A stretch of 64,000 nucleotides of DNA from Ostreococcus lucimarinus (Eukaryota): NCBI GenBank assembly GCA_000092065.1, contig CP000594.1. One strand, given 5' to 3'. The notes beneath the pieces were generated by a model. The model was not told where the DNA came from, made no database searches, and saw nothing but the letters and a program-made list of their open reading frames with translations. The position numbers and the translations under genes were made by a program. Below, one piece after another: positions 16,118 to 51,222 of this stretch. The number at the start of each line of letters is the position of its first letter. Position 1 is the stretch's first letter.

Positions 16118-16182
16118 ATCCAAACCATGGTCTTTTCGGTGTCTTGTTGAGTCTTCATATTGCAAATGTACGAATCACAAAA

Positions 16183-18393: not shown

Positions 18394-18695
18394 ATAAGAA
18401 AAGAATTCTTTAAGCCGTGTTTTTCCTGGTCACATCGGCGCGATGACTGATTTTCAAGTTTTTCAACAGCCTGGAAAAGCACGCCAGCGCGCCCCACTGG
18501 TCAACGTTTTGCCACTTTTTCGACGAGATCGGGGTACTGCAAAGCACACGGCGAAGACCCGAGAGATCAGCAGATCGACGAACTCCGCAGTGAGCTCAGT
18601 GACATCGTGTCAAGACTGGAGGCGGTGGAGAGCGCCTAATCATCGTTTTTCTATATCGCGCCATTCGTGGACAACAAAATATACGTCCACATATA

Positions 18696-35400: not shown

Positions 35401-35908
35401 AAGCGAGAAGATCTGGAAACGCAACCATTTTCCCCTTGTGCGCCTTCCACTTGGCCTTGGAGTGCACACTCTTCTTGCGATAAAAATCACTCTCCGCCGC
35501 TCGTTGTAACCCGAATCCGCGACCGACCAAAGTACAGAAGTCCGTGGTCAGATCCTTCTTGAAACCCGCGCAGGCGAACCCTTTCGCGTCGCACTCGCGT
35601 TCACACGCGTCGAAAGACTCATAAGTCTCCATCAGGTTACTCCCGACTGGAATGCGGCTTCCGTGCCACCAATAATTTGTTAAATCATCCTCCAACGACC
35701 CAAGAGCGGCTTCGGGAACGTTCACGCCCGCTTTTTTCATGGCGCGCCCCAAGCGTCCTTCGGGAACGCACCAAGCATATGCCGTTCGACCGTGAATTCC
35801 GATTAACACGAACGTAGCGACGAGGATGAACGCGGCCGAGTTCCACCCAATCCATCTATCGCGCGTTCTTGTTCTTCTCGTCGTCATCGGTGCGTCAACG
35901 CCCGTCAT
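20438..35908 (-). CDS. Giant (5156 aa) mosaic cell-surface protein. It combines an N-terminal signal anchor, kringle/FN2-like and PAN-like Cys modules, TSP1 repeats, acidic and coiled-coil tandem repeats, a C-terminal DUF285 array and a C-terminal TM.
   Basis: Single uninterrupted ORF. TSP1 signatures are '[25 protein letters not shown]' and '[24 protein letters not shown]'. A kringle/FN2-like module is 'CVFPFTTDY...[17 protein letters not shown]'. DUF285 units are '[34 protein letters not shown]' and others in the last ~1300 aa. TM segments are '[14 protein letters not shown]' (N-terminal) and '[17 protein letters not shown]' (C-terminal). Confidence 0.6.
   Translation of the reverse strand: [5156 protein letters not shown]
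24560..25045 (-). repeat. 3 x 162-bp coding tandem repeat (54-aa unit '...[46 protein letters not shown]')
   Basis: Visible in the ORF translation and in the antisense ORF 24450..25052. Confidence 0.8.
25065..25650 (-). repeat. 5 x 114-bp coding tandem repeat (38-aa acidic unit '[38 protein letters not shown]')
   Basis: Visible in the ORF translation. The antisense ORFs 25060..25803 and 25073..25909 are repeat artefacts. Confidence 0.8.
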
Positions 35909-36129: not shown

Positions 36130-36585
36130 CGCGTGTAAAGGCAGACACTTTATATAGCACTTTGGGAGGTTAAAAGGTGTCCCAAAGTCTCATACATTGG
36201 CCTATACTTTGGCAACATCCCGCGCTTTGATTACAGTACAGTAATATAACCCCCGCCAATGCGCGGGATGAATGGCATACATTCCATAGTATATGGGGAC
36301 CGGACCGGCGGGACGTGTGATTTTTACCGTATGGGTCACGACTCGTCATTCGGAGTACTCGTATGGAATAATGAAACACCATAACTGCATTTACTTTTTG
36401 GTTCATTAAAAAAACCGTACGGGCATTTACTGCAGAATTGGCCACTTTTCGCGCGGGTTTCACTGGACACGTGTCAAAAACGTGGCTTTTCTGAAACTCG
36501 ATTTTTGCTAGGGTTTAGCGTCTCAGTGTCCCGACGGAGATACAGTGCGGGGATCCCGTCGGCAGCACTCTCCGTCGCGCACGCA
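36130..36585. promoter_or_regulatory. Bidirectional intergenic region between the two giant genes. It carries module copy 3, TATA-like 'ctatataaag', a hairpin 'ctttggg..ggttaaaa..cccaaag', a palindrome 'ttacagtacagtaa', and the 27-bp box 60 bp before ATG 36586.
   Basis: Read directly. The module sequence is conserved with 5656..5889 and 19750..20125. Confidence 0.55.
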
Positions 36586-39500
36586 ATGTCGAAGAAATCT
36601 GATCCACTGTATGTACCAGTCAACACGTGTGAAGACGACACAGTCGGTCTTCTTCGGACGATCGATGAAGTTCAAGTAGACGAGGGTGAAACCAACGTTA
36701 CTTCGCCCGAAGATAATAATTGTGACGGCGGCGTTCGAGTAGTAGACATGGTTGGGTTGATACGGAACGGGCTGCATGCGCGGAGGTGCGCGAGCAGACG
36801 ACGGTCCACCGCGATCATCCACGTTTTGTTAACTGTCGTTCTGGCAAGTTTTTTGCGTTCGACCTTGGCGTTTGAAAGGACAGATGGGTTTCAAGGCGAG
36901 CTTGAAGATACCGCACACGAAGGACCGGGAGCATCAAGGAGTTCGGTGGCGAACGAAACCGCGGCGCTGGGGTGTGCATGGGGGATACCTTGTCCGCCAG
37001 TGGCTCAGGCGGTGGTGGATGTCGTGTCAGATCCACATGGTGCTGCCGAAGATGCTGCGAACCTGGCTGGAGATGGACTCAATAGTGCTGTAGATGCAGC
37101 AGCGGCTGGGGCAACATTTTTGTACGATCAAGGGACGGCAGCCGCGAGCGCAGCAGCGGCAGCGGCGACAGAGTTGGCGTCGGCTGGATTTGAATTCGCC
37201 AAGGGTGCGGCCACAAGCGCATACGCGATGGGTTGCTCCGCGGCGGCGATGGCTTGGAACACGGCGACGGCGGTCTATGACCGTATGAGCGACCCAGAAA
37301 AATTTTTGTCAGACATGATTGACAGCTTTCCCACATCTTTGGGGGATTTGAAGTCGCTTTCGGGCAAGGCACTCGCAGTCGGTGGAGAAGCCTTCGTGGA
37401 GATGAATGCGAATAATCCCGTTGGACGCCAAGCGCTCGCTGCTGTCAAAAAGGCAAACGAAATCGGCGGCAAGTACGGTTTCGAGAACCTTCAGAAATTC
37501 ACCGCTGTGGGCGCGTCGTTGACGAATCGCGTTATCCCCGGCGGTGGCATAATTTTTGAAGCCGTGGACGTCGTCGGTGAAACGGCGCAAGATGCTGTGG
37601 ATACTGCGATTCTCATCGTGGAGTCTATGCTCAACGCTCTTGAGTGCAAAGTGTCGCCAGTCGATGTTATGGAGGTGATACAAAAAGTTGTCATCGAACA
37701 AATATCAAGCTGGAATGCGTTTGCGAAAATGTTCGAGGAGAAGAAGGGGACTGACTTCTTCTACAAACTCGATCATGTCATCTGCAATACTCTTTGGACA
37801 GTGGCTATGCCGCATGCGGACTTGATGGTGACGGCGATTGGCGTCCTCCTGGAAAAAGTCCAAGCCACTTGTCCAGGAGTTATCCCAGCGGATTCCAAAC
37901 CAGCAGCTACGCTGGGGTTGATTTTTGACGCGTCTGTAAAAGGGGGCTCAATGAAAGGTGTATCTGCTGAGGTTGGCATCGGTGCTGACATTGATGGGAA
38001 CAAATTTTGCTATTTCGGCTCCTGCGCTTACGCAGGTATATCGTTTGGTGGCTACGGTGCTGATGGGACGATGTTGGCGGGACTCAGTGTTTGGAAGTCT
38101 ATGGATTCAGTTCCGGGCACCTCGAGTACATTTGCGTTCGCGGCCGATATCACCATGCCATTACTCCCCTCGTTTGATCCCGGAGTCACGTTCGTTTCAA
38201 ACGACGCCGGGCTCATCGGCATCAGTGTCTCAAAAGAAATCCCCGGCGGCGACGAACCAAGTGGTGAATTTTCGGTCACGAAAGGGCGATGCGTAACGCC
38301 TGTTTGTGTCAAGACAGATGGTAATCCTTGTGGTGAGGGTCAGGCTGCTTGGTCCGACGTGGGCTCGCATGCGACTGCTGCAGTGGAGGCGATCAAGACG
38401 GATGAGTGCATAGTTGCTGGTGCCGGTGTGATTGAACAAAATGGTGGAATTTCCGTGAGTCGAGAAATCCGGTTACCGGCGTCTGGGGTGAACCTTCTTG
38501 CCGATGCTGAGGCAAACCCGACGGGAATGAAGAATTTTAAGCCCTCAAGCGTGAGGATTCCTGAGGGTAAATTCTTACTTGCGTTTACCGGTGGTGATGA
38601 AGCATTTAAGGGGAGCGAGACAGTGATTCGTAGCTATAAGTCAAAACTCAACAACCGTTTGTATTCAATGACGTCCTTTGTCGTTTCTGACATTGCAGCC
38701 GAGTTTCACGAAGAAGCGCCAAAATCAGTTGGCCCAGAACATGCTGGTTCAATCAGTAAATGTAAAGCGATGTGCGCGGTGAAGAAACACTGCTGCAATA
38801 CGGATGAATCCATCGGAAGTAACCAGTATCTAAGCTGCCTACAGGCATGCGTCGTCCGCGTGCGTGGAACCGACGAGCGGACATGTAACTCTTACTGTGC
38901 ATCTGCAACGACTTCTCGTCACATTAATGGTTACATGTACAACCTCGCAACATCTTGCGCTGATGTCGTTGCATCCGAAGGAAAGTTATGTTCTACTCGG
39001 TACGGTAGCGATCGTTCAACCTGCCTATACGGTTGTTCGATCGGACGCGACCCCGAACAATCGCTCGCAGTCGTCAAATCCACTGGATTCTATATGCAAC
39101 TTCCTGCGGCACATGTTACCCCCAGGTCGACGAATAATTTGCGCGATCGGACGTTGAGTAGTGTGATTGTTCGAGCCGGGTTTGTTGTTAAACTGTACGC
39201 CGGGCGCGACCTGAAAGGTCAATACCTGACGCTCGGGAGTTCGGCGACGCTGTATGGTAACCATGCGAGGTTCTATTCATCCTTACGCGGATCATTCCCG
39301 AACACGAAGTTTGCCTGGGCAAATTTCAATGACAGAACTCGGAGCATCGCCATCTTGGAGGCGCCTGTGACGCTTTATACGCAACCCAATTTCCATGGCG
39401 ATCATGAATCAAAACTTGAGCATGCATTTGACTACACCAGTCTCGGTCCGACAGTCGGGGACAGGCATGTTAATTCCATCTTTCTAAGAGAAGGATCTGT

Positions 39501-42500
39501 GGTTGAAGTATACGAGGGACGCAGTTTCAACGGTCGAGGCATGCAGTTCATATCCAGCGTATCAGATGTCCGCCGCGCAACTGAATCCATCGGTGACCTT
39601 TCTAGACCGACATGGCAAAGAGTTTATGGAACTGCAAGTATGGTTGACGCGGGTCGTGAAGAAGTATATAGTATTCACGCAGATGACGTCGCAAATACAA
39701 AGCCAGTTGATAATTCTGGTGACTGGTCGGACTTTTTGACACTGAAGTGGAGTCATATTTCTGTTGGGCCCACAGGCCATGTATGGGCGATTCGTAAACC
39801 TTACGGCAACGCTTATCACTGCATGCCACATCAAACCTCTTGCAAGACCAAATGGGAGTATACCAGGCTCACCCAGCTGGATGCTGGAAGTTTGTACGTT
39901 TGGGGGGTGACGTACTCGGGATACGTATACAGGCATCTCGTGAACACACACGAGGGTTCATGGACACGTGTAAATGCGCCAGATACGATGAAGCATATCT
40001 CAATAGGCCCAAGTGGCGATGTCTGGGCGGTATCGACGACGAATAAAGTATATTTCTGCGTGCATCCGTGTACTGGATCGTGGCGTGTCATCGGCGCATC
40101 CGCACCCGTAAAACGTCTCATATTTACTGTGAACAATGACAAATATATGGCTCGTGTCGATTTGAAGACTGACGGTAGTATTAATTTCAACGCTGGTCAT
40201 AAAGTAGCTGGCTGGTTGAGTCTAAGCGGAATCACGTACGCCACGAGCGGTCTCAACTATCTTTCCCTAAACTCGCGTTATTGGGAACATTATAGTGGCA
40301 TGAATGGCTACTGGTCGCCAGCCCAATACTCGTGCTCGAACGGCCTCGTTTCTGTGACTGGGCTCGTGAAGACAAAAAATCATGGCTGGGGGCAGGTCAT
40401 CGGTACTCTCCCGTCAGGGTGTCGTCCGACGAAAGCACTCATCTTCACCACGAATAACCACGATGAGCAGGCGCGAGTGAACGTATACGCCGACGGGACG
40501 ATCAAATGGGGTGCCGGCGGCAAGGGTCACGGATGGTTGAGCCTAAGTAACATTGTCTTTTCGACCAGTGGCAACGCGCTTTTACCTCTGAGCAATGGTT
40601 GGGCGCACTACAGTGGCACGAGTGGCTACTGGTCGCCTGCTGAGTACTCGTGCGCCGACGGCCTCGTGGTCTTGAGTGGATTAGTACGCGGTAGTAACTG
40701 GGGTTCTACTATCGGCACTCTTCCTCCGGGTTGTCGTCCGAAACAAGCTCTCATCTTCACCACGAACAACAGCGATAAGCAAGCGCGAGTGAACGTGTCA
40801 CCGGGGGGGGTGATCAAATGGTCACGTGGTGGCAAGGGCCACGGTTGGTTGAGCCTGAGCGGCATCGTATTTGCAATGACTGGGCTGCAGTTGATGCCTC
40901 TGAGCAACGGTTGGAAGTACTATAACGGCGCGAGAACGAGCGGGTATTGGGCACCCGCACAGGTCGCGTCTGTGCGCGGCCTCACCGTTGCTCAAGGCCT
41001 TATCAAAGGCGGTGGATGGGGTGGAACAATGGCAAAAATTACCGGTGGATGCGGATATATGAGTGATTTAATGTCCCTGACTAAGAAGAACGCGGGTCAA
41101 CATAGCACAGCACATAATGGCGTTGCAAGCCGCCCGTTGACGTCGACTCCAAATGGGCGCTGGGGGGGTGGCACGTGCACGCACACGAATCATGCGTCCG
41201 ACCCATGGTGGCGACTTGATATGGGGACGACGAGGACCTTGAGTTCGGTGGAGTTGTTGAATCGCAACGACTGCTGCAGTGACCGCTTTATCGGCCTCCG
41301 CGTCTACATCAGCAATCATAACTCCTACGTAAAGGATCATCCGAGTAACAAACAGTGCGGGCAGACGTTGGGATCGCCGAATACTGCCTGGAATATATTC
41401 GACTGCGGCGATGCCATCTCTGGGCGCTACGTATACGCCACCCTATATGGTAAAGCAGCACCGTTAACTATCTGCGGTGTCAGGATGTTCGAATCAAATA
41501 CGATGATAAAGCAGCTGGACGTTGGAAAGCGCTATGTTTACGGAACCAGTACGAATGGTCATCTTTTTAAAATCCGTGCCGATGGGGGCGAGGATAACTG
41601 GTCCCTCGTACATCGTTATAGCGAATTCGGCGGTATTGATGCCAATTATGTTTCAGTCTCACCGCATTCCGAACAATCGTCGTTCCTGTGGGTTACAAAC
41701 CAAGCGAACGAAATTTATCGCCAATCCATCGGAATACAAATCTCTTCCATGAGAGTCGCCTCGGCAATCGTAACTGCTTACAAAGGTGTGGGATTTACCG
41801 GTGATAGTCTGCCCCTGACTTCCGGTTTTTATAACTTTAAGACGCTCGAGGCAGACTCAGACGCCGGATTTAAGCTCACGAACCTCAGAGCGTTTGTGCG
41901 AAGCATCAAGTCTATAAGGATCCATCCAGACTACGAGGTTGAGCTGCGCGGTTATAATCAAGCACGAGCAGTCGTCACCTCTAGTACAATGGGAGTACAC
42001 GATTTTCATAAACTGGACACAGAGGGCAAGGAACACGAAGAGAATATAGTTGGAGCTACAAGATTTCCGCGACCGAGCGGTGTCTCACGCAAATCGACGT
42101 TTATGCCAATCGAAGCAACTACGCTAGGAACATGGATCCAAACACGAACTGCCAACGTTTACGTGATGTCAGATCTATCAGCCACCCCAAGTGCTCTCAT
42201 TAGGTACATTGCTGCGTACGGCGATGCAGAATATTGCAAAATGATCATGTTTCACGTGCGTCACGGCGATGAAGTCTCTGTTGTGCCTGAGGAGGCTGGA
42301 TATGCGACTTTTGGCATCAGAGATGCGTCTTCCGACAAGTGTCAGAATCGCGACGGTGTACTATCGCTCTGGCGTATAAAGCAAACTCCGAGATTGGCGC
42401 GCCGCGCGACAGATGCAGGCTACGGCATCGGAAAGTTGAAATTCTCGATTTTGGGAGGCTGGACGGGAGAAATAGCCTCAATGAAAGTGATGAGAAAACT

Positions 42501-42996
42501 CACTTATGTCCAAGGGTACTCCGGTGGCCGTCATCGTAATGAGGGAGGAAATCCAAAACGGACTCCACGAGAATGTCGGGACATCGCTAAAAGCAAGGGT
42601 TTACCTGCCTGGGGATTTCGAACCGGCCGTCATAATGATCCTAACTGGCGGTTTACGTGCTTCTTTTATGAGCACGGATTTGGGAGATTTGCGGGTAATG
42701 ATGACACAATGCATATGACAGGATGCGTCGATATATCCCGAAAGACCGCAAATGGCTGCGCACTGAGCGCATCAGCCAGCGCGCGGTTGGGTTCTGAAGA
42801 CTTAGAGACTTACCCTCGCGCGATGGCGAGACCAAAGGCGAGACTGCTAGAATCAGACTGGTACTATATCTCTGTCTGCTGTGTTCTCGTCAGCCTAGCG
42901 TCTGTGGTAGCGTTCGTCGCATTTCGACGCTCGCGAACGTCGGGCAAACGCATTCTACTTGAACGAGTCTCAACGAACTACGGTGCCACAATTTAA
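36586..42996 (+). CDS. Giant (2137 aa) lectin-like surface protein with a signal anchor, beta-gamma-crystallin-like and tectonin-like repeats, 3 x 105-aa repeats, a fucolectin/F5-8-type-C-like domain and a C-terminal TM
   Basis: The ORF is open from 36505 (TTG) and the first ATG is at 36586 ('MSKKSDPLYV'). The TM is 'AIIHVLLTVVLASFL'. Tectonin-like units are 'HISVGPTGHVWAIRK' and 'HISIGPSGDVWAVSTTNKVYFC'. The FTP/discoidin-like block is 'WWRLDMGTTRTLSSVELLNRNDCCSDRFIGLRVYISN...GRYVYATLYGKAAPLTICGVRMF'. The C-terminal TM is 'YYISVCCVLVSLASVVAFVAF'. Confidence 0.55.
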   Translation: MSKKSDPLYVPVNTCEDDTVGLLRTIDEVQVDEGETNVTSPEDNNCDGGVRVVDMVGLIRNGLHARRCASRRRSTAIIHVLLTVVLASFLRSTLAFERTDGFQGELEDTAHEGPGASRSSVANETAALGCAWGIPCPPVAQAVVDVVSDPHGAAEDAANLAGDGLNSAVDAAAAGATFLYDQGTAAASAAAAAATELASAGFEFAKGAATSAYAMGCSAAAMAWNTATAVYDRMSDPEKFLSDMIDSFPTSLGDLKSLSGKALAVGGEAFVEMNANNPVGRQALAAVKKANEIGGKYGFENLQKFTAVGASLTNRVIPGGGIIFEAVDVVGETAQDAVDTAILIVESMLNALECKVSPVDVMEVIQKVVIEQISSWNAFAKMFEEKKGTDFFYKLDHVICNTLWTVAMPHADLMVTAIGVLLEKVQATCPGVIPADSKPAATLGLIFDASVKGGSMKGVSAEVGIGADIDGNKFCYFGSCAYAGISFGGYGADGTMLAGLSVWKSMDSVPGTSSTFAFAADITMPLLPSFDPGVTFVSNDAGLIGISVSKEIPGGDEPSGEFSVTKGRCVTPVCVKTDGNPCGEGQAAWSDVGSHATAAVEAIKTDECIVAGAGVIEQNGGISVSREIRLPASGVNLLADAEANPTGMKNFKPSSVRIPEGKFLLAFTGGDEAFKGSETVIRSYKSKLNNRLYSMTSFVVSDIAAEFHEEAPKSVGPEHAGSISKCKAMCAVKKHCCNTDESIGSNQYLSCLQACVVRVRGTDERTCNSYCASATTSRHINGYMYNLATSCADVVASEGKLCSTRYGSDRSTCLYGCSIGRDPEQSLAVVKSTGFYMQLPAAHVTPRSTNNLRDRTLSSVIVRAGFVVKLYAGRDLKGQYLTLGSSATLYGNHARFYSSLRGSFPNTKFAWANFNDRTRSIAILEAPVTLYTQPNFHGDHESKLEHAFDYTSLGPTVGDRHVNSIFLREGSVVEVYEGRSFNGRGMQFISSVSDVRRATESIGDLSRPTWQRVYGTASMVDAGREEVYSIHADDVANTKPVDNSGDWSDFLTLKWSHISVGPTGHVWAIRKPYGNAYHCMPHQTSCKTKWEYTRLTQLDAGSLYVWGVTYSGYVYRHLVNTHEGSWTRVNAPDTMKHISIGPSGDVWAVSTTNKVYFCVHPCTGSWRVIGASAPVKRLIFTVNNDKYMARVDLKTDGSINFNAGHKVAGWLSLSGITYATSGLNYLSLNSRYWEHYSGMNGYWSPAQYSCSNGLVSVTGLVKTKNHGWGQVIGTLPSGCRPTKALIFTTNNHDEQARVNVYADGTIKWGAGGKGHGWLSLSNIVFSTSGNALLPLSNGWAHYSGTSGYWSPAEYSCADGLVVLSGLVRGSNWGSTIGTLPPGCRPKQALIFTTNNSDKQARVNVSPGGVIKWSRGGKGHGWLSLSGIVFAMTGLQLMPLSNGWKYYNGARTSGYWAPAQVASVRGLTVAQGLIKGGGWGGTMAKITGGCGYMSDLMSLTKKNAGQHSTAHNGVASRPLTSTPNGRWGGGTCTHTNHASDPWWRLDMGTTRTLSSVELLNRNDCCSDRFIGLRVYISNHNSYVKDHPSNKQCGQTLGSPNTAWNIFDCGDAISGRYVYATLYGKAAPLTICGVRMFESNTMIKQLDVGKRYVYGTSTNGHLFKIRADGGEDNWSLVHRYSEFGGIDANYVSVSPHSEQSSFLWVTNQANEIYRQSIGIQISSMRVASAIVTAYKGVGFTGDSLPLTSGFYNFKTLEADSDAGFKLTNLRAFVRSIKSIRIHPDYEVELRGYNQARAVVTSSTMGVHDFHKLDTEGKEHEENIVGATRFPRPSGVSRKSTFMPIEATTLGTWIQTRTANVYVMSDLSATPSALIRYIAAYGDAEYCKMIMFHVRHGDEVSVVPEEAGYATFGIRDASSDKCQNRDGVLSLWRIKQTPRLARRATDAGYGIGKLKFSILGGWTGEIASMKVMRKLTYVQGYSGGRHRNEGGNPKRTPRECRDIAKSKGLPAWGFRTGRHNDPNWRFTCFFYEHGFGRFAGNDDTMHMTGCVDISRKTANGCALSASASARLGSEDLETYPRAMARPKARLLESDWYYISVCCVLVSLASVVAFVAFRRSRTSGKRILLERVSTNYGATI
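40110..41060 (+). repeat. 3 x ~315-bp coding tandem repeats (105-aa unit 'ALIFTTNN..ARVNV..G.IKW..GGKGHGWLSLS.IVF...G..L.PLSNGW.HYSG.SGYWSPA.YSC..GLV...GLV')
   Basis: Visible in the translation. Confidence 0.7.
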
Positions 42997-43265: not shown

Positions 43266-44075
43266 TCACCATGTCAGGTGTTTCGAGTGCACTAGAGACG
43301 TGACCGCCGATACACAGGACGTCGAGCTCGGCGTGCCTGATTTCACGACTCGGCGACCATGGTTTGAAACCGAAATGACCATCGGCTTCAGGCCCAGGCG
43401 CGGCCGCAATGCTACTTTAAACTTAATTTTTTTTTTTTGAAAAAAGAGTAGTAAGAGTAATAAAAATAAACTTTTTTTTTGTTTGAGTTGGGGCCCCCCC
43501 AACATGATAAAACCGCACATCGACGTTGATGTACCACATGTAAGATTTCTCCGGGAACCAATCGTGTGAGTGAAGTGGTCAAACCAAGCCACGCAACTCA
43601 TCGACCGTAAATTGATACTTGTCGAGACTGCGCTTCGAAGGCAGCGTGCCGCGCGCTCGAGCATTCTTGAGGCACGTCTTACGCAGTATCTTTTCGCGTG
43701 CTGCTTGTAATAATTGAGTTGTCTGTAGTTACCATCGCCGCCGTCCCGCTTCGGCGTATATTGAGCTCTGCTGTAGGCCGGACTCTCGTCCACGTTCTCG
43801 TGGCACGCCTGCTTCTGGCTGCGTCCAGTAGCTCGGGAGTTGAATAAGCCGTCACGCTTCTCTCTCATGTAGGCACTTTTACGTTGATGGAGCTCTCCAG
43901 CTGGAATGTCCTTTTCGAGAACTCTCACGTCCGCGTCGCCAAACGTGAAGATTGGATGCCGTGCGTATTTATGCGAGGCAAGGCGCGCTCTGATCGAACC
44001 TGTCGTCGATCCGATGTACGTTTTGTCACATTTCGCATTATCGCTATACATTTCGTACACGCATCCCGACGGCAT
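43266..44075 (-). CDS. GIY-YIG nuclease, copy C. The catalytic core is intact, but the C-terminal third is frameshifted by a 1-bp deletion, making it a possible pseudogene.
   Basis: The first ~120 aa match copies A and B. 'cgcagtatcttttcgcg' lacks one T relative to 'cgcagtattcttttcgcg' in A and B, so the frame runs on to 269 aa. Confidence 0.6.
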   Translation of the reverse strand: MPSGCVYEMYSDNAKCDKTYIGSTTGSIRARLASHKYARHPIFTFGDADVRVLEKDIPAGELHQRKSAYMREKRDGLFNSRATGRSQKQACHENVDESPAYSRAQYTPKRDGGDGNYRQLNYYKQHAKRYCVRRASRMLERAARCLRSAVSTSINLRSMSCVAWFDHFTHTIGSRRNLTCGTSTSMCGFIMLGGPQLKQKKSLFLLLLLLFFQKKKIKFKVALRPRLGLKPMVISVSNHGRRVVKSGTPSSTSCVSAVTSLVHSKHLTW

Positions 44076-47000
44076 TTGTCCTGGTTACCTATCTATCCCT
44101 AAGAAAATATTGTTGCCTCCTCCTGCGGTTTGCAGTCACATTCGAGAGACCATAGGTACTCGTGTCGCTGCGTGGGGTGCAAGGTCCGGGATGTAGATAT
44201 CGAACCGCCCGATTTCACACCTGGACGTTCGTGATCCGTCGAGACCTGACGAAATGACGAACTTGTTTTGTCGTCCCGAAATTCGTCAGCCCGTCGTTCG
44301 GTCACACTTTGTGTGTACCAATGATGAAAATGACGAAATGTTAAAATATTTTAATGTTTATTTTTATTTTAGATCTATGACAAGCAACAGTGTAGACCTT
44401 TATGAAAACAGTTCGTCATTCGTCATTTCGTCAGGATCCAAACCATGGTCTTTTTGGTGTCTTGTTGAGTCTTCATATTGCAAATGTACGAATTACAAAA
44501 TTAGTATGAGCACCAGACGACCGCCGGCGCGAGCTCCGTCTCCCCCGTGTACCCATTGTTCTTCAGCCACTCGAAGCACCCGTCGCGGTCAATTTCCCAA
44601 TAAACGCCCTTCTCGTCCCTACCTTGCCTCAGGTGGTCCTCTTGCATTGGGACCCTGTGGCCCTTTTCCTTCTTGAAGAAGTCCTTGAGCTTATTACCGA
44701 CCTTCGTCGCGCTATCTTGACCGCGCGCAGCCGCTGGCAACCACGTCTGGTATTCGATGAAGATGTCACTGTTGCGGATTTTATTTCCAACCCACTTCTC
44801 AGGGAATTCAACAGTGACGCAATGCTCAAACCATCGAGTGAACTTGGGCATGCATCCACGCTTCATTTCCGAATACGCATCGGTCGTAGGTCTGTCTTTG
44901 ACGTAGTCAAAGGTCGATAGGTCGAGCCCCATGAGATGGTCGTAGATTGCCCTCAAGTTCCTCGGATCCCTGATGTAAACCTCGCGGAATTCCTTCAAGA
45001 ATCCAGTCTGGTCGTTCAAGTGCGTGAGCAGTGGCTCCATGACGACGAACCGACGATCACTCATTTCCAGAAAGACCGGGTAGTCGTCGTTCGAGAAAAA
45101 TAGGAACCCAACCAGATTCATGATGACGTACAGCTGCACGTGCTTCGGGTTGATTGTGAAACTCGTGTCCGTGAGCATCGACTTCAGCAACTTTCTATAC
45201 ATTTTCATGATGCACTCATCTGCTTCGTTCAACGCGAGGCACTTTTTGCCTTCAATCATGTTCGCATGCGTCCCAAATATGTCCTTTTTCGGATCAGCCG
45301 TCTCGTGAAACGTCTTGCCCATGAGCGCGTGAAGCAGGTGCAGGAAAGTGCCCTTGCCGGTACCTTGGACTCCTCGAAACACGAGCGACGTGATCGGCTT
45401 CTCTTCGGGTCTCTGGAAGAGACACGCGAACCAATTCGAAGCGTACTCGAGCGCATTTTCTGAACCGCCACATAGCACCAGGAGGAGCTCGAGGAAAGGC
45501 TTCACGTCGCCCTCTTTGCCCAGTTCACTGGGGATGCCTTCGACCGGGTAGCCTCGCCACAGATTGTACGTCTTGTTGCTGCAGTTTTTCGGGACGACGT
45601 CGAGGTTATCGTACACCCGTTTATTGTCGTCGTCGAGCCACTTTTCGATGAACCCGTTTTTCTTGCCTTTCCTCAAGACACCGTTCTCATCGACAAAGGA
45701 GAGCTCTCGATAGCGCCTCACCAAAGCGGCCTCGCTGTACTTGGTAATGTCCCCGGTGGTTCCATAACAGCTATCGTCGCAGAAGAGGTCCTTGGTTAAG
45801 ATCTTTGCGACGTGCTTCTCGAACTCACGGCGGACCTCGATGTAGCCCGCAGACGTGCCCTCTTTGATTTCGTTCTGCTCCTTTTCGGTGATACCGGTCA
45901 CCAAACACCCAACCTCAAAGCGAAACTGTCTGGGCTTGCAGTTGCCATGGTTTTTCACGGTGAGCACGCCGAGACCGACCTCGGCGACGTAAAAGTGATT
46001 CCCACCGCCCCTTCCATTGCCTTCGTGGAAGCCCCCACAGCAAGGACATTGGCCCACAGTGGTGCCTCGCTGTGGGCGACATTGGTCGCATTCAAAATCA
46101 TACGATGTCGCTCCACTGAGCCAATGTATGCCCGTGAACCCCATTTCCTCGAGCAAAGGTGTCACAGATGCTTGCGTAAAGCTGCACTCCGTGTCCGCGC
46201 GTTCGACCTTGTGACCGACTTTGCCATCAAGGAAACTGTACAAATCGTTGGGCATCGGTGGTAAATTGTTGATGTCGCCTCGGAGTAGCTCGTAGCCCGG
46301 GGCATCGGCACCGACCACGTAGTTACCCGTCGTACGGATATCGACGAACCCTTCGATGCCCACCGTGCCTTTCCAATCGCCGAATCGTTCTTCGTCCCAT
46401 GCGAAGTACGTGTGGTACCCGCCTGATCGCGTTTTGACGATATACGCGCCTTCCCCGCCGACCTTGCGCGTCAACATTTCTTCCGTGAGTTCAAACTCGC
46501 ACTTGCCACCGTAACAATCCCAGTCGATGACGAGGACACGGTTCGGTCGCCCTGTCAGCACGCCGTACATTTCTCCTGGGATGACTTTCTGCGTATTCCG
46601 TTCATAGTTTGCTTCATCGAGGAACCCCCTGCCGCATGTTGGCTCCTTGTCCTGGTCGAGTGGGATCAGATGCATGCCGTTCGTAAATTCTCTGGCGTCC
46701 ATATATATCACATAAGAAAAGAATTCTTTAAGCCGTGTTTTTCCTGGTCACATCGGCGCGATGACTGATTTTCAAGTTTTTCAACAGCCTGGAAAAGCAC
46801 GCCAGCACGCCCCACTGGTCAACATTTTGCCACTTTTTCGACGAGATCGGGGTACTGCAAAGCACACGGCGAAGACGGGTGGCCGATGATCCATGTGTCC
46901 GTGTCTTCTCTGATGATTCGCTCCCGTTCATGGCTCAAGTGGTCGCGCGACCTCGCGCGTGAACGAAGGTGCCAAATTTTAGGTACCAGAGGTGCCCATT

Positions 47001-47116
47001 TCTTCGTGGTGAGATGGTCCCTCGTGTACCACGCCGCTCCCCTTTAAGTATGAAAAGTTATGTCCAATATATTGCGCGCGATGTCCGATGGTACACCATA
47101 CAATTTCATAGTTAAG
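43389..47116 (-). mobile_element. Copy C, the longest copy of the Prim-Pol/S3H + GIY-YIG element (about 3.73 kb), in minus orientation
   Basis: Termini are 'caggcccaggcgcggccgcaatgctactttaaactta...' (3' end, shared with copy A-right) and '...tcatagTTAAG' (5' end, shared with copy A-left). Internal order is 5' leader (~405 bp), primase-helicase, inverted-repeat spacer (~420 bp), GIY-YIG, 3' region (~320 bp). Confidence 0.75.
44501..46711 (-). CDS. Primase-polymerase/SF3 helicase, copy C (736 aa, intact)
   Basis: About 98% amino-acid identity to 16183..18393, with the same motifs. Confidence 0.85.
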   Translation of the reverse strand: MIYMDAREFTNGMHLIPLDQDKEPTCGRGFLDEANYERNTQKVIPGEMYGVLTGRPNRVLVIDWDCYGGKCEFELTEEMLTRKVGGEGAYIVKTRSGGYHTYFAWDEERFGDWKGTVGIEGFVDIRTTGNYVVGADAPGYELLRGDINNLPPMPNDLYSFLDGKVGHKVERADTECSFTQASVTPLLEEMGFTGIHWLSGATSYDFECDQCRPQRGTTVGQCPCCGGFHEGNGRGGGNHFYVAEVGLGVLTVKNHGNCKPRQFRFEVGCLVTGITEKEQNEIKEGTSAGYIEVRREFEKHVAKILTKDLFCDDSCYGTTGDITKYSEAALVRRYRELSFVDENGVLRKGKKNGFIEKWLDDDNKRVYDNLDVVPKNCSNKTYNLWRGYPVEGIPSELGKEGDVKPFLELLLVLCGGSENALEYASNWFACLFQRPEEKPITSLVFRGVQGTGKGTFLHLLHALMGKTFHETADPKKDIFGTHANMIEGKKCLALNEADECIMKMYRKLLKSMLTDTSFTINPKHVQLYVIMNLVGFLFFSNDDYPVFLEMSDRRFVVMEPLLTHLNDQTGFLKEFREVYIRDPRNLRAIYDHLMGLDLSTFDYVKDRPTTDAYSEMKRGCMPKFTRWFEHCVTVEFPEKWVGNKIRNSDIFIEYQTWLPAAARGQDSATKVGNKLKDFFKKEKGHRVPMQEDHLRQGRDEKGVYWEIDRDGCFEWLKNNGYTGETELAPAVVWCSY

Positions 47117-47181
47117 CCACACTTATTATATGACGACAGTGCCTACCTGTCGGTGGTCACGGAAAAGTTGCGTCTCAGACT

Positions 47182-47329
47182 GAGGATGGCGTGGCTCATG
47201 CGAGCTATATATACCTCATATATACATATATTAACACTTATAACACTATTAATGTACAATTGATTGGATGAGGTGCTCAGTCCACCCGCGCGAGGTCAAC
47301 AGCAGCAATTGTCTATGCACTTGGAGCAT
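47182..47329. repeat. Direct repeat DR-1 (~150 bp). It contains TA-rich 'gctatatatacctcatatatacatatattaacac' and the 3' coding end of the metallothionein-like gene.
   Basis: About 88% identical to 48858..49006. Confidence 0.8.
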
Positions 47330-47595
47330 GAGTTTTTGCACTCGCACGACGGACACGCGCAGGAGGTGCATCCGCACGACTTACACGTGGTCGCATCGGG
47401 ACACGCGCATTTGTCGGGGCCACAAGCATCACAGTCTTTCGGGCAGCACGCCTTGTCCGTGGACTCAGATTGTACCGTCCGTGCTGCAACCCGCGTCGGG
47501 CGCGAGACGACGCGCACGGCGCGTGGCGCGGTTCTTGACAATACGAAATCTGGTATCTGCGTACTCTTTACCTTAACGGCGGAGACTTTGAGCAT
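47296..47595 (-). CDS. Metallothionein-like Cys-rich protein
   Basis: ORF 47296..47643. The last ~52 aa are about 40% Cys: 'ACCPKDCDACGPDKCACPDATTCKSCGCTSCACPSCECKNSCSKCIDNCCC'. The Met at 47595 ('MLKVSAV') was taken as the start. The N-terminal ~45 aa are non-Cys, so the true start or exon structure is uncertain. Confidence 0.4.
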   Translation of the reverse strand: MLKVSAVKVKSTQIPDFVLSRTAPRAVRVVSRPTRVAARTVQSESTDKACCPKDCDACGPDKCACPDATTCKSCGCTSCACPSCECKNSCSKCIDNCCC

Positions 47596-47810
47596 TGTTG
47601 CGTCGAGGAATGGGCCAAGGGTAAGTAACCTCGTGGTCGGCACGTGCCCGCCTTATACAATCGACGCCTGAAAAGGGAGACTGGATGAGATCGAGGGCAC
47701 CCCGTGAGCGATCACTCTTCGACGCGGAACTCGTTCCTGTAGACGGCCAGCCACCACTCGAACGACCATACGGCAGCACAAAAGTACATCCACAACGTGT
47801 ACGTATCGAA

Positions 47811-48542
47811 ATGGCTGCCTATACTCAAGCGACGTTAACAGCACCTTCGTCGTCGACAGCCGTAAGCAATTCGAAGATAAGACTACGCCGTTCACGAACA
47901 ACTACGCGCACACATTCTGATCCGTCCGAAAGTACGCCGTTGAGTGAAGAGGCGCAAATCATAGTTGATGCATCGGAGGCGTACCCAGCGCAGACAAGCG
48001 TGGATTATTCGTTCGCAAGGAGTGGGTTCAGTAACCAGTGTGAACGAGCACTCAACGAGCAAATCAATGTCGAGTACAATATTTCGTACGTCTATCACGC
48101 CATGTGGGCGTACTTCAATCGTGACAATATCGCATTGGCTGGCTTTGCTGAACACTTTCGAAAAGAGTCACTGGAGGAGCGTGCGCATGCGGAACAACTC
48201 ATGGAGTACATGAACTTACGAGGCGGCAAAGTTGAGCTCCAACAATTGTTACCACCACAGAGTGAATACGATCGCCCGGAGAAAGGATGCGCACTATTAG
48301 CCCTGGAGCTGAGTTTGAGTCTCGAAAAGTTGAATAAAGAGAAACTGTGTGAACTGCATCGCGTCGCTGAGGATGCAGGAGACGCACATATGTGCGATTT
48401 TATTGAAGGCGAGTTATTAGACTCGCAGGTTCAAAGTGTGCGACAGGTTAGCGAGATGGTCGCCACGCTATTACGCATGGGACCGCCAGCAGATGGTATG
48501 GCAACTTGGCACTTCGATCAAACCTTACTTGAGGTGGCATAG
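47811..48542 (+). CDS. Ferritin with an N-terminal transit-peptide-like extension
   Basis: Classic ferritin signature: 'CERALNEQINVEYNISYVYHAMWAYFNRDNIALAGFAEHFRKESLEERAHAEQLMEYMNLRGG'. The ORF is open from 47685, the first ATG is at 47811 ('MAAYTQATLTAPSSS...'), and the Ser/Thr/Arg-rich leader is consistent with organellar targeting. Confidence 0.8.
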   Translation: MAAYTQATLTAPSSSTAVSNSKIRLRRSRTTTRTHSDPSESTPLSEEAQIIVDASEAYPAQTSVDYSFARSGFSNQCERALNEQINVEYNISYVYHAMWAYFNRDNIALAGFAEHFRKESLEERAHAEQLMEYMNLRGGKVELQQLLPPQSEYDRPEKGCALLALELSLSLEKLNKEKLCELHRVAEDAGDAHMCDFIEGELLDSQVQSVRQVSEMVATLLRMGPPADGMATWHFDQTLLEVA

Positions 48543-48640
48543 AAGCGGATTGTATCTCGTTGAGTCTAGTCACTTTCGTGTGCTCGTTTCGTTGGTTTCT
48601 GGTTACGAGTTCTTCCGTTGTTCTAAATATAACATATATT

Positions 48641-48862
48641 TAGACATATCCAAACCCTAGTACAATCACCCTAGGGTTTAGTCAAACTTTAATCAGTTTT
48701 ATCTAAATTAATTTTCATCTGTCGTCGCGAAAGATGAATCCTCGCGACAGAAAAACAGGTCTAAACCTTAAACCCTAACTTCGGTTGGGCTATATAGCAC
48801 TTTGGGCGGTTAAAACCGCGCCCAAAGCCCCATATATTGTCCCATGTTTCGGCCAAATCCCG
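48641..48862. promoter_or_regulatory. Partial copy of the upstream-module repeat, with telo-box-like 'aaaccctag', 'ccctagggtttag', 'taaaccttaaaccctaac', TATA 'gggctatatagc' and hairpin 'ctttgggcggttaaaaccgcgcccaaag'
   Basis: Similar to 36130..36240. It sits just 5' of direct repeat DR-2. Confidence 0.45.
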
Positions 48863-49006
48863 CGCTTTGAGGATGGCGTGGCTCATGCGACCTATATATG
48901 CCTCATGCGTACATATATTAACATTTATAAGGGTATTAATACATAATTGATTGGATGGGGTGCTCAGTCCACCCGCGCGAGGTCAACAGCAGCAATTGTC
49001 TTTGCA
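48858..49006. repeat. Direct repeat DR-2, partner of 47182..47329
   Basis: Aligned by eye. The minus strand here again ends an ORF with '...CKDNCCC*'. Confidence 0.8.
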
Positions 49007-49177
49007 CTGATCAGTCCGTGTTTGACAAGGAGACGTTCGCGCGAAAGTGAGTGGAGTGAGATAAGCAAAATTGGGATTTTTTGTTATTTAAAATGACTTC
49101 TTTTATATCGACGATCTTGTCTCGATTATACGCTGACCTTCGCGGGTGCTTGTTGTACTTGTACGTACACGACCCAG

Positions 49178-50968
49178 CTAGTCCGCTTTGTTGTGGATCT
49201 TGTCGCACTTGTCGAAAGCGTATGCGGCGACGGTACTGCTGACCCCGGACGGATCAAAGACTGATGCGAGCTCAGCTGCCGCGCGGACCGCATCCGTCTC
49301 TGATTCCGCGCTGTTTACGTTTTTCATCGCAGAAAAATAGCCGGTAGTCTTACCAACCGCCTCCATACCTTGGTCGAGACTATTTGCCGCCTTTTTCAAA
49401 GCAGCAAGCTTACTCCCAGCTTCGGCAACGTTAGCACCGGCACGGGCTGCAGCCTTGGCCCCAGTTGTCGCAGCTCCACTACTCCCAGCGGTCGCTACAA
49501 ATGCAATAATTTCCAACGGCCCGAGAATCATATTAGTTACCGCGGAGCCACAAGCGGCGTCATCTTTTGCGGCACCCATACCGCAGTTCACCCACTTCTC
49601 ACCGCTCACTGTTGGAGGTTGGCCCCAGCAAACTGGACCGACGCCATTGTAACCACTGCGACATTTCTTGTAACACAAACCAGCGTCGTACTCCAAACCA
49701 GGAGGACACGTGGCTGCTTCAAAGCCGTGTGAGCAGTATATCTTTTTCGGGCAACTCGGCGCAATTCCATGTGCGTACCCATTGCCGGTGCAAGAAACGC
49801 CGCACAAGTTGCAGCCAATCCGGTTCGGATGACTGCTAGGGCAAGGAGGATAACAAAGTCCAAGACAGTCTTGTCTTCCTTTTCTGCTACAGTGCCTTCC
49901 GCCGCATACGAGTCTTGTCCTCGCGTTCCCCAAAAGGCGTCGACCGTTGGCCGCATGTTCGCCAAGGGTGGATGATGATGATGACCAGTACTCCCAGCCA
50001 CACTGGACGGTACCAACACCACGACCGCGGTTACCTCTGTTACAAAAAAGACCATGATCATTCCAGCCCGAGCCGCAGCGTTGATGGCAGTCGTAGCCAA
50101 ATCTGGCATAATTACCGAGGTGGTGGCATTTGGTATAGCACAAGACGCCCCCTGCAATTGTTTCTTTATTGGAAGGGCAATGAGACGGGACTTTGCCCAC
50201 ATCGCGGCCGTATGAGTTTTTCCAACAGAACTCGACGGTGATGGCGTTCGCAACGACAGCACCCTTCGCATTCGACGCAGCACTTACACCATCACTAAAG
50301 CTGTCCCATTTTCCGCCCAACCGAGCAGATAGCATCGCTTCGTGTACCTCCAATAATGCCTTGTCTTGCTCAATCTCTTCGTGCAGTTTTTGCATATATG
50401 CTGAGACGTTCACTGGCGCCGGTTGCGTCGCACCCTCATCCACCGTGGCCTGCCAAACGAAGTTCGAATGCTCATCATTAGCAAGATTTTCATCGTCACG
50501 CCTGCGCAAATGTTGTTTAAGCATCTTAATTCGTAATAGCGTCGCGTTTCTTCCGCCCTTGGTCGATATGAACATGCCATCCTCGGCTCCTGCCGCATTC
50601 AACCTGGGTTCGGCACCTGGGATCACCTCCCCAGGACCCGCACTCCCGAGCAACGCGTGGACTTCTGGACCGAATTCCATCTCGTCAACGAATTCGTCCA
50701 AGTGATCAGGGAGATCAAATTCACCCTGGATCGAGTGCGCGGACAATCCCAGCAACGCAGACGGCCCTTTCGGTGCACTTTCACGGTACGAGAACGAAAT
50801 CACACCCACAGCAAACAGCACAGCGGCCTGCTTCACGGTACACCAGCCGCATGCCGCCGCTTTTCGCCCTTCACGTTCCTCCGTTTGTTGCCAACTGCGA
50901 GCGCCGTCGTTCGACGAGCCGGGCGCGCCGTATGTCTCACTAATCGCCGCCGCTTCGTACGTCGGCAT
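49178..50968 (-). CDS. Hypothetical Cys-rich type-II membrane protein
   Basis: 596-aa ORF. It has the N-terminal TM 'AAVLFAVGVISFSY', repeated 'C..C...G...G..C' modules ('CYTKCHHLGNYARFGYDC', 'CYKKCRSGYNGVGPVC') and an Ala/Gly-rich C-terminus. Confidence 0.4.
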   Translation of the reverse strand: MPTYEAAAISETYGAPGSSNDGARSWQQTEEREGRKAAACGWCTVKQAAVLFAVGVISFSYRESAPKGPSALLGLSAHSIQGEFDLPDHLDEFVDEMEFGPEVHALLGSAGPGEVIPGAEPRLNAAGAEDGMFISTKGGRNATLLRIKMLKQHLRRRDDENLANDEHSNFVWQATVDEGATQPAPVNVSAYMQKLHEEIEQDKALLEVHEAMLSARLGGKWDSFSDGVSAASNAKGAVVANAITVEFCWKNSYGRDVGKVPSHCPSNKETIAGGVLCYTKCHHLGNYARFGYDCHQRCGSGWNDHGLFCNRGNRGRGVGTVQCGWEYWSSSSSTLGEHAANGRRLLGNARTRLVCGGRHCSRKGRQDCLGLCYPPCPSSHPNRIGCNLCGVSCTGNGYAHGIAPSCPKKIYCSHGFEAATCPPGLEYDAGLCYKKCRSGYNGVGPVCWGQPPTVSGEKWVNCGMGAAKDDAACGSAVTNMILGPLEIIAFVATAGSSGAATTGAKAAARAGANVAEAGSKLAALKKAANSLDQGMEAVGKTTGYFSAMKNVNSAESETDAVRAAAELASVFDPSGVSSTVAAYAFDKCDKIHNKAD

Positions 50969-51222
50969 AGTTTGTTCCTTTAGTCGAGCGTCGGATTGTG
51001 GCGAAACGGCGGGTGCCCTCGGTCGGTCGGACGGACTTTCGCGGTCGGTCGGACGAGGGGCCCGTTGGCGCCCCGCGGGTGTGTGTACCAGCCCTTAGGG
51101 TTTAATGTATATTAATGTATTTATGGGTATCATCCCGCGCAATTCGAGGGGTAGATTACTGTACTGTACAGTAACCCTCTAGTAGAACACGCTAGGTGAA
51201 ATCAAGCGCCGCGACCGTACGC

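Follow-up and report, generated by a model that had tools for sequence, protein, structure and literature searches.

Probable mosaic origin of a head-to-head metallothionein-type and ferritin gene pair at the edge of a low-GC island in Ostreococcus lucimarinus CCE9901

Analysis of a 64-kb stretch of Ostreococcus lucimarinus DNA (64,000 nucleotides, referred to as the window) indicated that the locus carrying a Cys-rich metallothionein-type (MT) gene and a ferritin gene is probably a strain-specific mosaic, situated at the margin of a repeat-rich, low-GC island in strain CCE9901, and not a jointly mobile metal module. The Cys-rich ORF on the minus strand and the ferritin gene on the plus strand lie head-to-head, with their ATGs 215 bp apart, between two direct repeats of 141 nt (47181-47321 and 48868-49008) that are 90% identical and have a spacing of 1687 bp (Table 1). 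An initial annotation had described a divergent pair over an upstream region of about 200 bp, adjoining a repeated element (copy C) and flanked by repeats of ~150 bp, and had read it as a co-mobilised metal module. The ferritin, the MT-type ORF, the head-to-head layout, the adjacency to copy C and the repeats were all recovered, the limits of the repeats being moved from 47182-47329 and 48858-49006 to those given above, while conserved or joint mobilisation did not hold up.

The island (GC ~0.50-0.53 vs 0.58-0.70) abuts normal-GC core genes and resembles the low-GC outlier regions of Mamiellales, the big and small outlier chromosomes, in its repeated elements, giant surface-type ORFs and strain-to-strain structural variation. 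A literature search found no report of a ferritin gene in a low-GC outlier region. Ferritin plays a central part in the day/night recycling of iron in Ostreococcus (PMC4855317). In one ecotype this gene sits in a variable, element-rich, low-GC island, with neighbours that differ in closely related populations; such a variable location suggests that iron-gene regulation differs between strains, with a possible bearing on niche partitioning.

Table 1. Features of the MT/ferritin locus, in window coordinates
Feature	Position	Strand	Remarks
PrimPol/helicase element copy C, right end and spacer	46977-47180		46977-47116 repeats 1667-1806 in inverted orientation (97%)
Repeat R1	47181-47321	-	Final 8 codons and stop of the intact MT gene, with its AT-rich 3' flank (115 nt)
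Cys-rich ORF	47296-47595	-	99 codons and stop
MT-type domain, ACCPKDC...DNCCC and stop	47296-47451	-	50 residues after Ala, with 18 Cys and no aromatics or His
Leader, 48 codons, basic, Ser/Thr/Arg/Val-rich	47452-47595	-	Homology to short MT genes ends at 47452
Native MT 5' flank, 59 nt	47596-47654	-	Common to L010, L038 and L039
Ferritin upstream region	47655-47810	+	MT/ferritin junction at 47654/47655
Ferritin CDS	47811-48542	+	243 aa; ~62-aa presequence or extension, then plant-type ferritin domain
Ferritin 3' flank	48543-48677	+	Part of the ferritin unit; telobox-like AAACCCTA motifs
Intergenic module, D16-like	48765-48867		Also at 36151-36230 and 3' of ferritin in L032-L036
Repeat R2	48868-49008	-	5'-truncated MT relic CKDNCCC, stop at 48983-48985, and MT-type 3' flank
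596-aa Cys-rich ORF, family unassigned	49178-50968	-	Between MT-type promoter module P and relic R2
Module P, promoter-proximal/5'UTR	50999-51104	-	Directly upstream of short MT genes at 8 other loci
D14, CCCGCGC and GGGTAGATTACTGTAC palindromic intergenic motif	51108-51168		6 matches in the window vs 0.12 expected

One JGI metagenome contig (L011) matches window positions 46395-51168 at 99.96%, both repeats included, and the segment between the repeats is matched at 99.9-100% by four more contigs (L028-L031). An assembly artefact was ruled out, the locus being reproduced in these independent assemblies.

Within the window the 141-nt repeat occurs in just two copies, and its 45-nt core and its first 23 nt each gave 2 exact occurrences against 0.00 expected from shuffles. 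The search for other copies of the repeat returned 17 metagenome loci that carry the core as an MT 3' end; two copies were present only in L011, which is the same locus, and elsewhere the MT end lies in unrelated contexts. Alignment identified the repeats as 3' ends of two MT-family units, one intact and one a stump, and not as the termini of an element. Both hold the last MT codons on the minus strand, as the initial annotation had noticed, reading CIDNCCC-stop in the left copy (R1) and CKDNCCC-stop in the right copy (R2). A 3' flank of the R1 type is also present behind the short MT genes of L021 and L023. R2 begins 170 nt beyond the 3' end of the 596-aa ORF and is a fragment, because in-frame stops precede its MT codons; its K variant is the common allele of full-length MT genes. 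Neither ARAGORN nor Rfam at E<=0.1 gave a tRNA or ncRNA in the repeats or spacers, and a scan of the repeat core against IMG/VR for a viral origin gave no match. Short direct repeats around genes can be reused gene-family 3' ends, not marks of transposition.

The 596-aa ORF gave no Pfam match, and its best NCBIfam hit (E=0.046) scored 13 bits vs a 336-bit cutoff. Module P, on its upstream side, showed 92-98% identity in L013, L015, L018, L020, L021, L023, L024 and L026, the homology stopping ~30 nt short of either ATG. Each MT family unit comprises promoter module P, followed by an ORF and then by a 3' flank rich in AT. R1 ends the intact MT gene, and R2 would be the stump of a second unit whose body, on grounds of parsimony, was replaced by the 596-aa ORF; bracketed by P and an MT 3' end, this ORF probably uses both, and R1 and R2 may serve as terminators. 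A parallel case with the same architecture, an independent MT relic of 13 codons, was identified in L014, L016, L017, L019, L022 and L027, where the truncated tail follows an unrelated bHLH-like gene and its breakpoint differs from that of R2.

The Cys-rich ORF proved to be real, but its Cys content, put at ~40% in the initial annotation, is 36% (18/50) in the C-terminal domain and 18% when the entire ORF is counted. The domain contains no F, W, Y or H, and its Cys residues occur in CC, CxC, CxxC and terminal CCC motifs. Nine distinct alleles or paralogues retain every one of the 18 Cys, and their amino-acid changes are confined to non-Cys positions; the changes in Cys codons are all synonymous (TGC to TGT) and affect 2/18 codons. 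A free-standing 51-aa gene, MACCPKDC...DNCCC, is carried by 10 of the 17 loci with an MT 3' end, 8 of them with the 5' module P and 2 with another 5' region. In being small (50-51 residues), aromatic-free, composed of ~30% or more Cys (here 36%) in CxC, CC and CxxC motifs and invariant at Cys among paralogues, the domain is like metallothioneins as an operational class. Unlike described metallothioneins, it has no detectable sequence relationship to the Pfam MT families, NCBIfam, PDB chains or human MT2A.

Comparison of the MT domain with Pfam (E<=10) and NCBIfam (E<=1) gave no match, comparison with the PDB gave a chance match only and with human MT2A E=3.3, and HMMER searches with the MT protein, covering 5.8 and 1.8 billion proteins, recovered nothing beyond its own cluster. 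Since there is no match in Pfam, NCBIfam or PDB, the name metallothionein is assigned here by composition, and the domain is a putative metal binder. It belongs to a lineage-restricted multi-copy family of 51-aa MT-type genes. The family appears to be undescribed, and no report of it was found in a literature search.

Alignment of the window copy with the short 51-aa genes revealed that the last codon of its leader (AAG) takes the position of their ATG. The 48-residue presequence-like leader sets this copy apart from metallothioneins; to our knowledge such a leader is unusual among them, and a literature search found no example of a natural algal metallothionein with a chloroplast transit peptide. 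The ATG and frame of the leader-MT are kept in four alleles, the L038 leader showing 4 non-synonymous and 3 synonymous changes, and the window copy differs from environmental alleles at three polymorphic non-Cys residues (15, 48 and 94). The limits of the leader-MT unit (47214/47219-47654) are identical in L010, L038 and L039, where D14/P is found upstream and no ferritin is present. The MERC catalogue, built from Tara eukaryotic metatranscriptomes, holds an allele of the leader-containing MT (cluster member P0221), and the leader-MT ORF is transcribed in nature. Transcription of the Cys-rich ORF, on which the earlier reading depended, is in this way confirmed for the leader form; the metatranscriptome-derived protein is an L010-type allele (E48, K94) and not the ferritin-adjacent window copy.

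The leader would send a metal-thiolate protein into an organelle. We suggest, tentatively and with the balance of probability against it, a natural organelle-targeted metallothionein that arose when a cytosolic 51-aa MT gained a presequence at its start codon, recombination within the mobile-element-associated island having placed the gene head-to-head with a relocated plastid ferritin. If true, this would be a strain-specific plastid metal-buffering pair, with genes shuffled as promoter-ORF-terminator cassettes between strains. The leader-bearing variant offers a testable case of a targeting sequence added to a tiny protein.

The ferritin gene is genuine and has the N-terminal extension of ~60 residues that had been proposed for it. 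By domain and motif content it is a bona fide plant-type ferritin: PF00210 was matched at E=5.7e-30 over its full length (profile positions 3-141 of 142), and in the PDB the best solved relatives were ferritins of plants (E~1e-59), soybean chloroplastic ferritin-4 among them, with the alignment beginning at residue 63. With the ferroxidase centre taken as Glu/Tyr in helix A, Glu-x-x-His in helix B, Glu in helix C and Gln in helix D, the motifs NEQINVEYN, EERAHAE, LELSLSLEK and DSQV were conserved in an alignment to 7XZ4 that was read by eye. The 62 residues ahead of the aligned domain are Ser/Thr/Arg-rich, and the partial O. lucimarinus protein XP_001421298.1 (180 aa) agrees with residues 62-241 at every position. 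The gene resembles the plastid ferritins of plants and green algae (soybean ferritin-4, PDB 3A68; O. tauri FTN) in its full-length PF00210 domain, its 50-60% identity to plant ferritins, its ferroxidase-centre motifs and the position of the extension before the four-helix bundle.

Unlike the ferritin of O. tauri and other Ostreococcus, the window gene lies outside the COG3/AAA slot, has a GC3 of 0.50 and not ~0.8 (0.77-0.86 in relatives), and has diverged faster. At positions invariant among other Ostreococcus-type ferritins it carries 13 lineage-specific changes, vs 0-6 in other non-basal lineages and 17 in the basal O. mediterraneus, and it is the most distant from both outgroups. In O. tauri, as in five or more uncultured relatives, ferritin lies in this conserved COG3/AAA-ATPase slot with no MT nearby; the gene order in L001-L008 is cNMP-kinase/MFS/COG3 <-> ferritin/AAA/kinase/Pol-zeta, and the ferritins of the slot relatives are 80-85% identical to that of the window. 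On O. tauri chromosome 2 (CAID01000002.2, 654-669 kb) the slot gene is without a Pfam tag and its translation aligns as ferritin; COG3 and ferritin are head-to-head there, 273 bp apart. The O. lucimarinus COG3 was not found among the named cluster members, which were just O. tauri and O. mediterraneus.

Without MT, a ferritin allele of 97% identity was present in at least three other contexts. Like the alternative contexts of the MT unit, these come from short metagenome contigs with repeats at their ends, so that some junctions may be chimeric, although each junction recurs in independent assemblies. The ferritin unit (47648-48677) is common to L032-L035 at 97.3% identity, and homology to the ferritin-only loci (L009 and L032-L036) begins at 47648-47658. 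The gene could have been relocated from the COG3/AAA slot, or duplicated with the original kept or lost; no report of ferritin relocation was found in a literature search. In the order of events that we favour, ferritin would have left the slot in this lineage, entered the island, drifted to low GC3 and outpaced its orthologues in divergence.

Analysis showed the spacer to be chimeric, with 59 nt from the MT flank and 156 nt from the ferritin flank. Upstream of the 59-nt flank there is a P/D14-type promoter region in L010, L038 and L039, and ferritin upstream sequence in the window. One recombination junction, at 47654/47655, would have produced the head-to-head pairing, leaving the MT gene with 59 nt of its own 5' flank and removing the D14/P promoter present elsewhere; any shared regulation of MT and ferritin would therefore be a by-product of juxtaposition. 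It is possible, though doubtful, that the ferritin-adjacent leader-MT is an inactive remnant that lost its promoter by recombination, ferritin being the only functional gene here. The missing D14/P of the three other loci and the origin of the transcript-derived sequence in another allele are consistent with this. However, the ORF is intact, with its ATG, frame and all 18 Cys kept and only the three non-Cys differences from environmental alleles, an identical sequence is kept in independent samples, and an intergenic region of ~200 bp also serves the ancestral COG3/ferritin pair.

The setting next to copy C raises another explanation, an unlikely one, namely that MT, ferritin and the 596-aa ORF are cargo of this PrimPol/D5-helicase element, whose right terminus would be D14 (51108-51168) and with which a captured ferritin would move. 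All three window copies of the element end their post-helicase segment at a D14/D11 motif, and the content before it varies from none at all through a 357-aa ORF to the MT, ferritin and 596-aa genes. MT units adjoin element ends in L015, L020, L021, L023, L024, L038 and L039; in L032, L035 and L036 the ferritin unit is joined directly to the same element end (47019-47210, 92%), and contexts diverge just past the D14 palindrome. Yet D14 is also found upstream of genes away from element copies (36236-36251), where it resembles a shared promoter motif, and ferritin has non-element upstream flanks in L009/L034 and L033. The cargo explanation is compatible with, and not exclusive of, a mosaic locus.

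It is improbable that MT and ferritin work together as a metal-homeostasis module under a dedicated bidirectional promoter, duplicated or mobilised as a unit between the 141-bp repeats. Both genes are metal-related, both N-termini are presequence-like, the repeats bracket exactly this head-to-head pair with its 215-bp distance, and the arrangement is stable across several independent samples. Neither the pairing nor the spacer is conserved, however: the pairing is absent from all relatives examined, ferritin being paired with COG3 in O. tauri and L001-L008, and from the 97%-identical ferritin alleles, while the MT unit stands without ferritin in L010, L038 and L039. The intergenic region joins two unrelated flanks, and the repeats, as MT 3' ends, also occur after MT genes unlinked to ferritin. 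Neither 47181 nor 49008 showed a target-site duplication, and the whole repeat-bounded module had no second copy among the 17 metagenome loci; with each gene found without the other, the initial proposal that the module was duplicated or mobilised as a whole was not supported. Compared with L032, L035 and L036, the MT unit takes the place of ~50 nt of filler, with no clean insertion or empty site. The dedicated bidirectional promoter fared no better, because the ancestral COG3/ferritin pair is similarly spaced (273 bp in O. tauri) and the ~200-bp spacing alone is no sign of one.

It is highly improbable that R2 is a spliced terminal exon giving the 596-aa membrane protein a CKDNCCC tail, for which a CAG directly 5' of the TGC opening the tail (at the R2 edge, minus strand) and the Cys-rich nature of the ORF itself could be cited, since no in-frame donor was seen by eye near the end of the ORF, the one GT tried put the tail out of the MT frame, and the truncated tail with a different breakpoint after the bHLH-like gene suits relics better than exons.

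Matches to CCCGCGCGAGGTCAACAGCAGCAATTGTCT, alongside P modules, would index the number of MT units in the strain.

Analysis of the locus confirmed the arrangement proposed in the initial annotation, in that a Cys-rich ORF and a ferritin ORF lie between the two copies of a direct repeat (left copy R1, right copy R2) and that both copies include the terminal codons of the Cys-rich frame (Table). The Cys-rich ORF, of metallothionein type (MT), has 18 Cys in its C-terminal 50 residues; the right repeat copy holds just ...CKDNCCC and the stop, with in-frame stops ahead of it. The 45-nt core of the repeat and its first 23 nt each had exactly two occurrences in the window, where shuffled sequences gave an expectation of 0. 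Metagenome contig L011 matched window 46395-51168 at 99.96% and loci L028-L031 matched the inter-repeat segment at 99.9-100%, indicating that the arrangement is independently reproduced. The accompanying proposal of a co-mobilised module failed the tests of recurrence, conservation and target-site duplication: the R-MT-ferritin-R unit had no second occurrence in the metagenome loci compared, and no target-site duplication was seen at the repeat-bounded unit.

Table. Features of the window and the loci that share them
Feature	Window position	Remarks
Element copies (PrimPol/DUF5906-helicase)	1667-5474, 15162-18558, 43389-47116	one rearranged and inverted
Giant intronless ORFs	5875-12597, 20438-35908, 36505-42996	2240, 5156 and 2163 aa
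D14 palindrome	5816-5831, 20007-20034, 20045-20060, 36236-36251, 51149-51164	also in L009, L032-L036, L038, L039
Direct repeat R1, R2	47181-47321, 48868-49008	141 nt, 90% identical, 1687 bp apart
Cys-rich (MT) ORF	47296-47595	minus strand, 99 codons
Ferritin ORF	47811-48542	plus strand, 243 codons, PF00210 E=5.7e-30
Leader-MT unit	~47214-47654	limits alike in L010, L038, L039
Ferritin unit	47648-48677	
Ferritin unit, setting 1		L032/L035/L036, joined to same element end and first ~30 nt of R1
Ferritin unit, setting 2		L009/L034, behind D14-like motif and 228-aa gene
Ferritin unit, setting 3		L033, behind another sequence
Window-specific spacer	48678-48764	87 nt
Telobox-like motifs	48650-48780, 51085-51095	ferritin 3' flank; just upstream of P
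Module P	50999-51104	105 nt
13-codon MT relic		L014, L016, L017, L019, L022, L027; SLAISRKNSCSKCKDNCCC
Core genes	right of ~51 kb	RbfA, mitochondrial carrier, ABC-F, HECT ligase, MIF4G/MA3 protein, MRP-S28

The MT and ferritin units join at 47654/47655, so that the 215-bp spacer consists of 59 nt of MT flank and 156 nt of ferritin flank. In L010, L038 and L039 the leader-MT unit (MT with a 48-codon N-terminal leader) is preceded by sequence like P, the MT-type promoter-proximal module, with the palindromic intergenic motif D14 also present in L038 and L039, and is followed by inserts and then an element end. At least three other settings hold the ferritin unit (97.3% identical) with no MT, and its downstream neighbours vary (giant ORF, ABM-domain gene, among others). 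MT and ferritin may be co-regulated, but this would be incidental to a recombination junction; a head-to-head pair with a spacer of ~200-270 bp also exists at the ancestral locus (COG3/ferritin).

R1 comprises the last 8 codons and stop of the intact MT gene and 115 nt of AT-rich 3' flank; in L021 and L023 the same flank lies behind the short MT gene, and the other short genes have a diverged form of it. R2 is a 5'-truncated copy, its K variant being identical to the common MT allele, and is located 170 nt after a 596-aa ORF. Module P precedes the short MT gene in eight loci (92-98% identity to the window copy) and in the window precedes the 596-aa ORF instead, homology stopping ~30 nt before either ATG. 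In the simplest reading, P and R2 would be what is left at either end of a second MT unit after the 596-aa ORF took the place of its body, with the ORF borrowing the MT promoter and MT 3' end; R1 and R2 probably act as 3'-end/terminator modules of the two minus-strand genes. A parallel supports this replacement: six other loci have a bHLH-like gene followed by a 13-codon MT relic with a different breakpoint. ORF translations read by eye placed the relic between this gene and an apparent flavodoxin gene with a presequence-like N-terminus, so that MT units have another iron-economy gene beside them. In L014 the bHLH-like ORF begins MATYEA... and the 596-aa ORF MPTYEA..., and a 5' module is common to both (window 51002-50951). 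For splicing of R2 onto the 596-aa ORF, no frame-compatible donor was found by eye. The MT 3' flank is interrupted, at the positions equivalent to window 47231 and 47284, by an 885-bp insert with a 163-aa ORF (L024:1590-2081, also L015 and L020); the ORF has a GIY-YIG nuclease domain and a CCHC zinc-knuckle and resembles a small mobile gene of homing-endonuclease-like type.

Scanning metagenomes with 30 nt across the MT stop codon retrieved 17 loci, 10 of which carry a free-standing 51-codon MT gene encoding M(A/T)CCPKDCDACGPD(K/N)CACPD(A/T)(T/S)TCKSCGCTSCACPSCECK(N/I)SCSKC(K/I)DNCCC. Alignment of nine distinct alleles/paralogues revealed that all 18 Cys are invariant; Cys-codon changes are synonymous (TGC>TGT, 2 of 18 codons) and amino-acid changes are confined to non-Cys positions. 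The domain is Cys-rich without aromatic or His residues and thus fits the operational definition of a metallothionein. It matched no Pfam or NCBIfam model, PDB chain or human MT2A, and when the 99-aa leader form was searched with HMMER against 5.8 and 1.8 billion proteins, its own cluster alone was retrieved. Judged by composition and Cys conservation, it should bind Zn, Cu or Cd via the 18 thiolates.

Homology of the window MT to the short genes ends at 47452; their ATG position is AAG in the window copy and GAG in another allele, and the window frame stays open for 47 further upstream codons, to an ATG at 47595. The leader (MLKVSAVKVKSTQIPDFVLSRTAPRAVRVVSRPTRVAARTVQSESTDK) is basic, rich in Ser, Thr, Arg and Val and without a hydrophobic core, and by its sequence is transit/presequence-like, not signal-peptide-like. 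It would send the MT to an organelle, a prediction put forward tentatively and at somewhat less than even confidence. Four leader-MT alleles retain the ATG and frame, with both synonymous and non-synonymous leader changes. MERC, a catalogue built from Tara eukaryotic metatranscriptomes, is the source of cluster member P0221, which indicates that the leader-containing ORF is transcribed in natural populations; P0221 matches the L010-type allele, not the ferritin-adjacent copy. The latter is without the promoter module present upstream at other loci and may be transcriptionally dead. P0221 (ERR1712159_198179) has Cys at the MT stop position (…DNCCC-C-PRAGGVGS…) and continues into sequence that is 3' flank in L013/L026; this readthrough could be a TGA>TGY variant or a quirk of protein-level assembly.

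Among solved structures, plant ferritins were closest to the ferritin; soybean chloroplastic ferritin-4 was one of them (E~1e-59). The alignment starts at residue 63 and shows the ferroxidase-centre motifs to be conserved, leaving ~62 N-terminal residues as a presequence/extension. The alignments identify it as a plant-type ferritin that, from family knowledge and the motif check, is expected to act in plastid Fe oxidation and storage like those of other green algae. It is ordinary and already annotated, albeit as a partial protein, residues 62-241 being identical to the 180-aa partial O. lucimarinus CCE9901 protein XP_001421298.1 (708,927-bp record).

Every other Ostreococcus-type lineage examined, including L001-L008 and O. 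tauri, holds ferritin in a conserved slot (cNMP-dependent kinase, MFS transporter, divergent COG3, ferritin, AAA ATPase, kinase, DNA polymerase zeta), and none of the relatives examined has a Cys-rich gene there. The L001-L008 ferritins are 80-85% identical to the window ferritin in BLASTP local alignments; the slot gene of O. tauri chromosome 2 (CAID01000002.2, ~660 kb; 242 aa, without a Pfam tag on the record) was called ferritin after translation and alignment in this analysis. The window ferritin is located outside the COG3/AAA slot. Its GC3 is 0.50 versus 0.77-0.86 in relatives, it carries 13 private changes at positions invariant in other Ostreococcus-type ferritins (0-6 in other non-basal lineages, 17 in basal O. 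mediterraneus), and its identity to both outgroups is the lowest. With the slots of the other lineages as reference, we infer an old relocation into the low-GC island, or duplication followed by loss. No report of the MT family, leader variant, ferritin displacement or module reuse was found in the literature, and the lineage-restricted MT-type family, the variant of it that is fused to a leader, the move of ferritin to a variable low-GC island and the reuse of MT promoter/terminator modules around other ORFs appear to be new.

The window is bipartite, with ordinary core genes from ~51 kb rightwards (GC 0.54-0.71 in 2-kb windows) and a left 50 kb of GC ~0.49-0.55 in which the PrimPol/DUF5906-helicase element is present three times, along with giant ORFs. 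The MT/ferritin locus lies within the final 4 kb of this low-GC part, immediately after the rightmost element copy (copy C). Three giant ORFs with internal tandem repeats occupy most of the low-GC part; a domain search of the 2240- and 2163-aa ORFs matched 13 DUF285 repeats in one and tectonin and F5/8-type-C domains in the other, and these two look like surface or adhesion-type proteins. The element encodes a 736-aa PrimPol/DUF5906-helicase protein and a 269-aa ORF, and its copies are mutually 93-98% identical. D14 (CCCGCGC-N8-GGGTAGATTACTGTAC; AGTAATCTACCC) occurs six times in the window against 0.12 expected, always in the low-GC part and 40-200 nt upstream of a gene start; it may serve as a promoter element common to several genes, mark a recombination hotspot or be the terminus of an element. 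A D14/D11 motif closes each of the three element copies, the content ahead of it being variable, and MT units are found repeatedly beside element ends, as would suit MT and ferritin being cargo of the element; however, D14 has the look of a generic island promoter motif as well, and we consider the cargo explanation unlikely.

Further element copies were seen in L023, L024, L038 and L039, often adjoining MT units. In the metagenome contigs, flanking contexts differ immediately past D14, and in L011 window position 51168 is joined to the D14 copy at 20040. The window-specific spacer between the ferritin unit and a D16-like module contains the short inverted repeat GTCGCGA-N11-TCGCGAC; the variant ferritin loci L032-L035 lack this spacer. 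The ferritin 3' flank and the sequence just ahead of module P contain telobox/telomere-like AAACCCTA motifs, one form being the palindrome AAACCCTAGGGTTT, and the same motif precedes P in L013 and L023.
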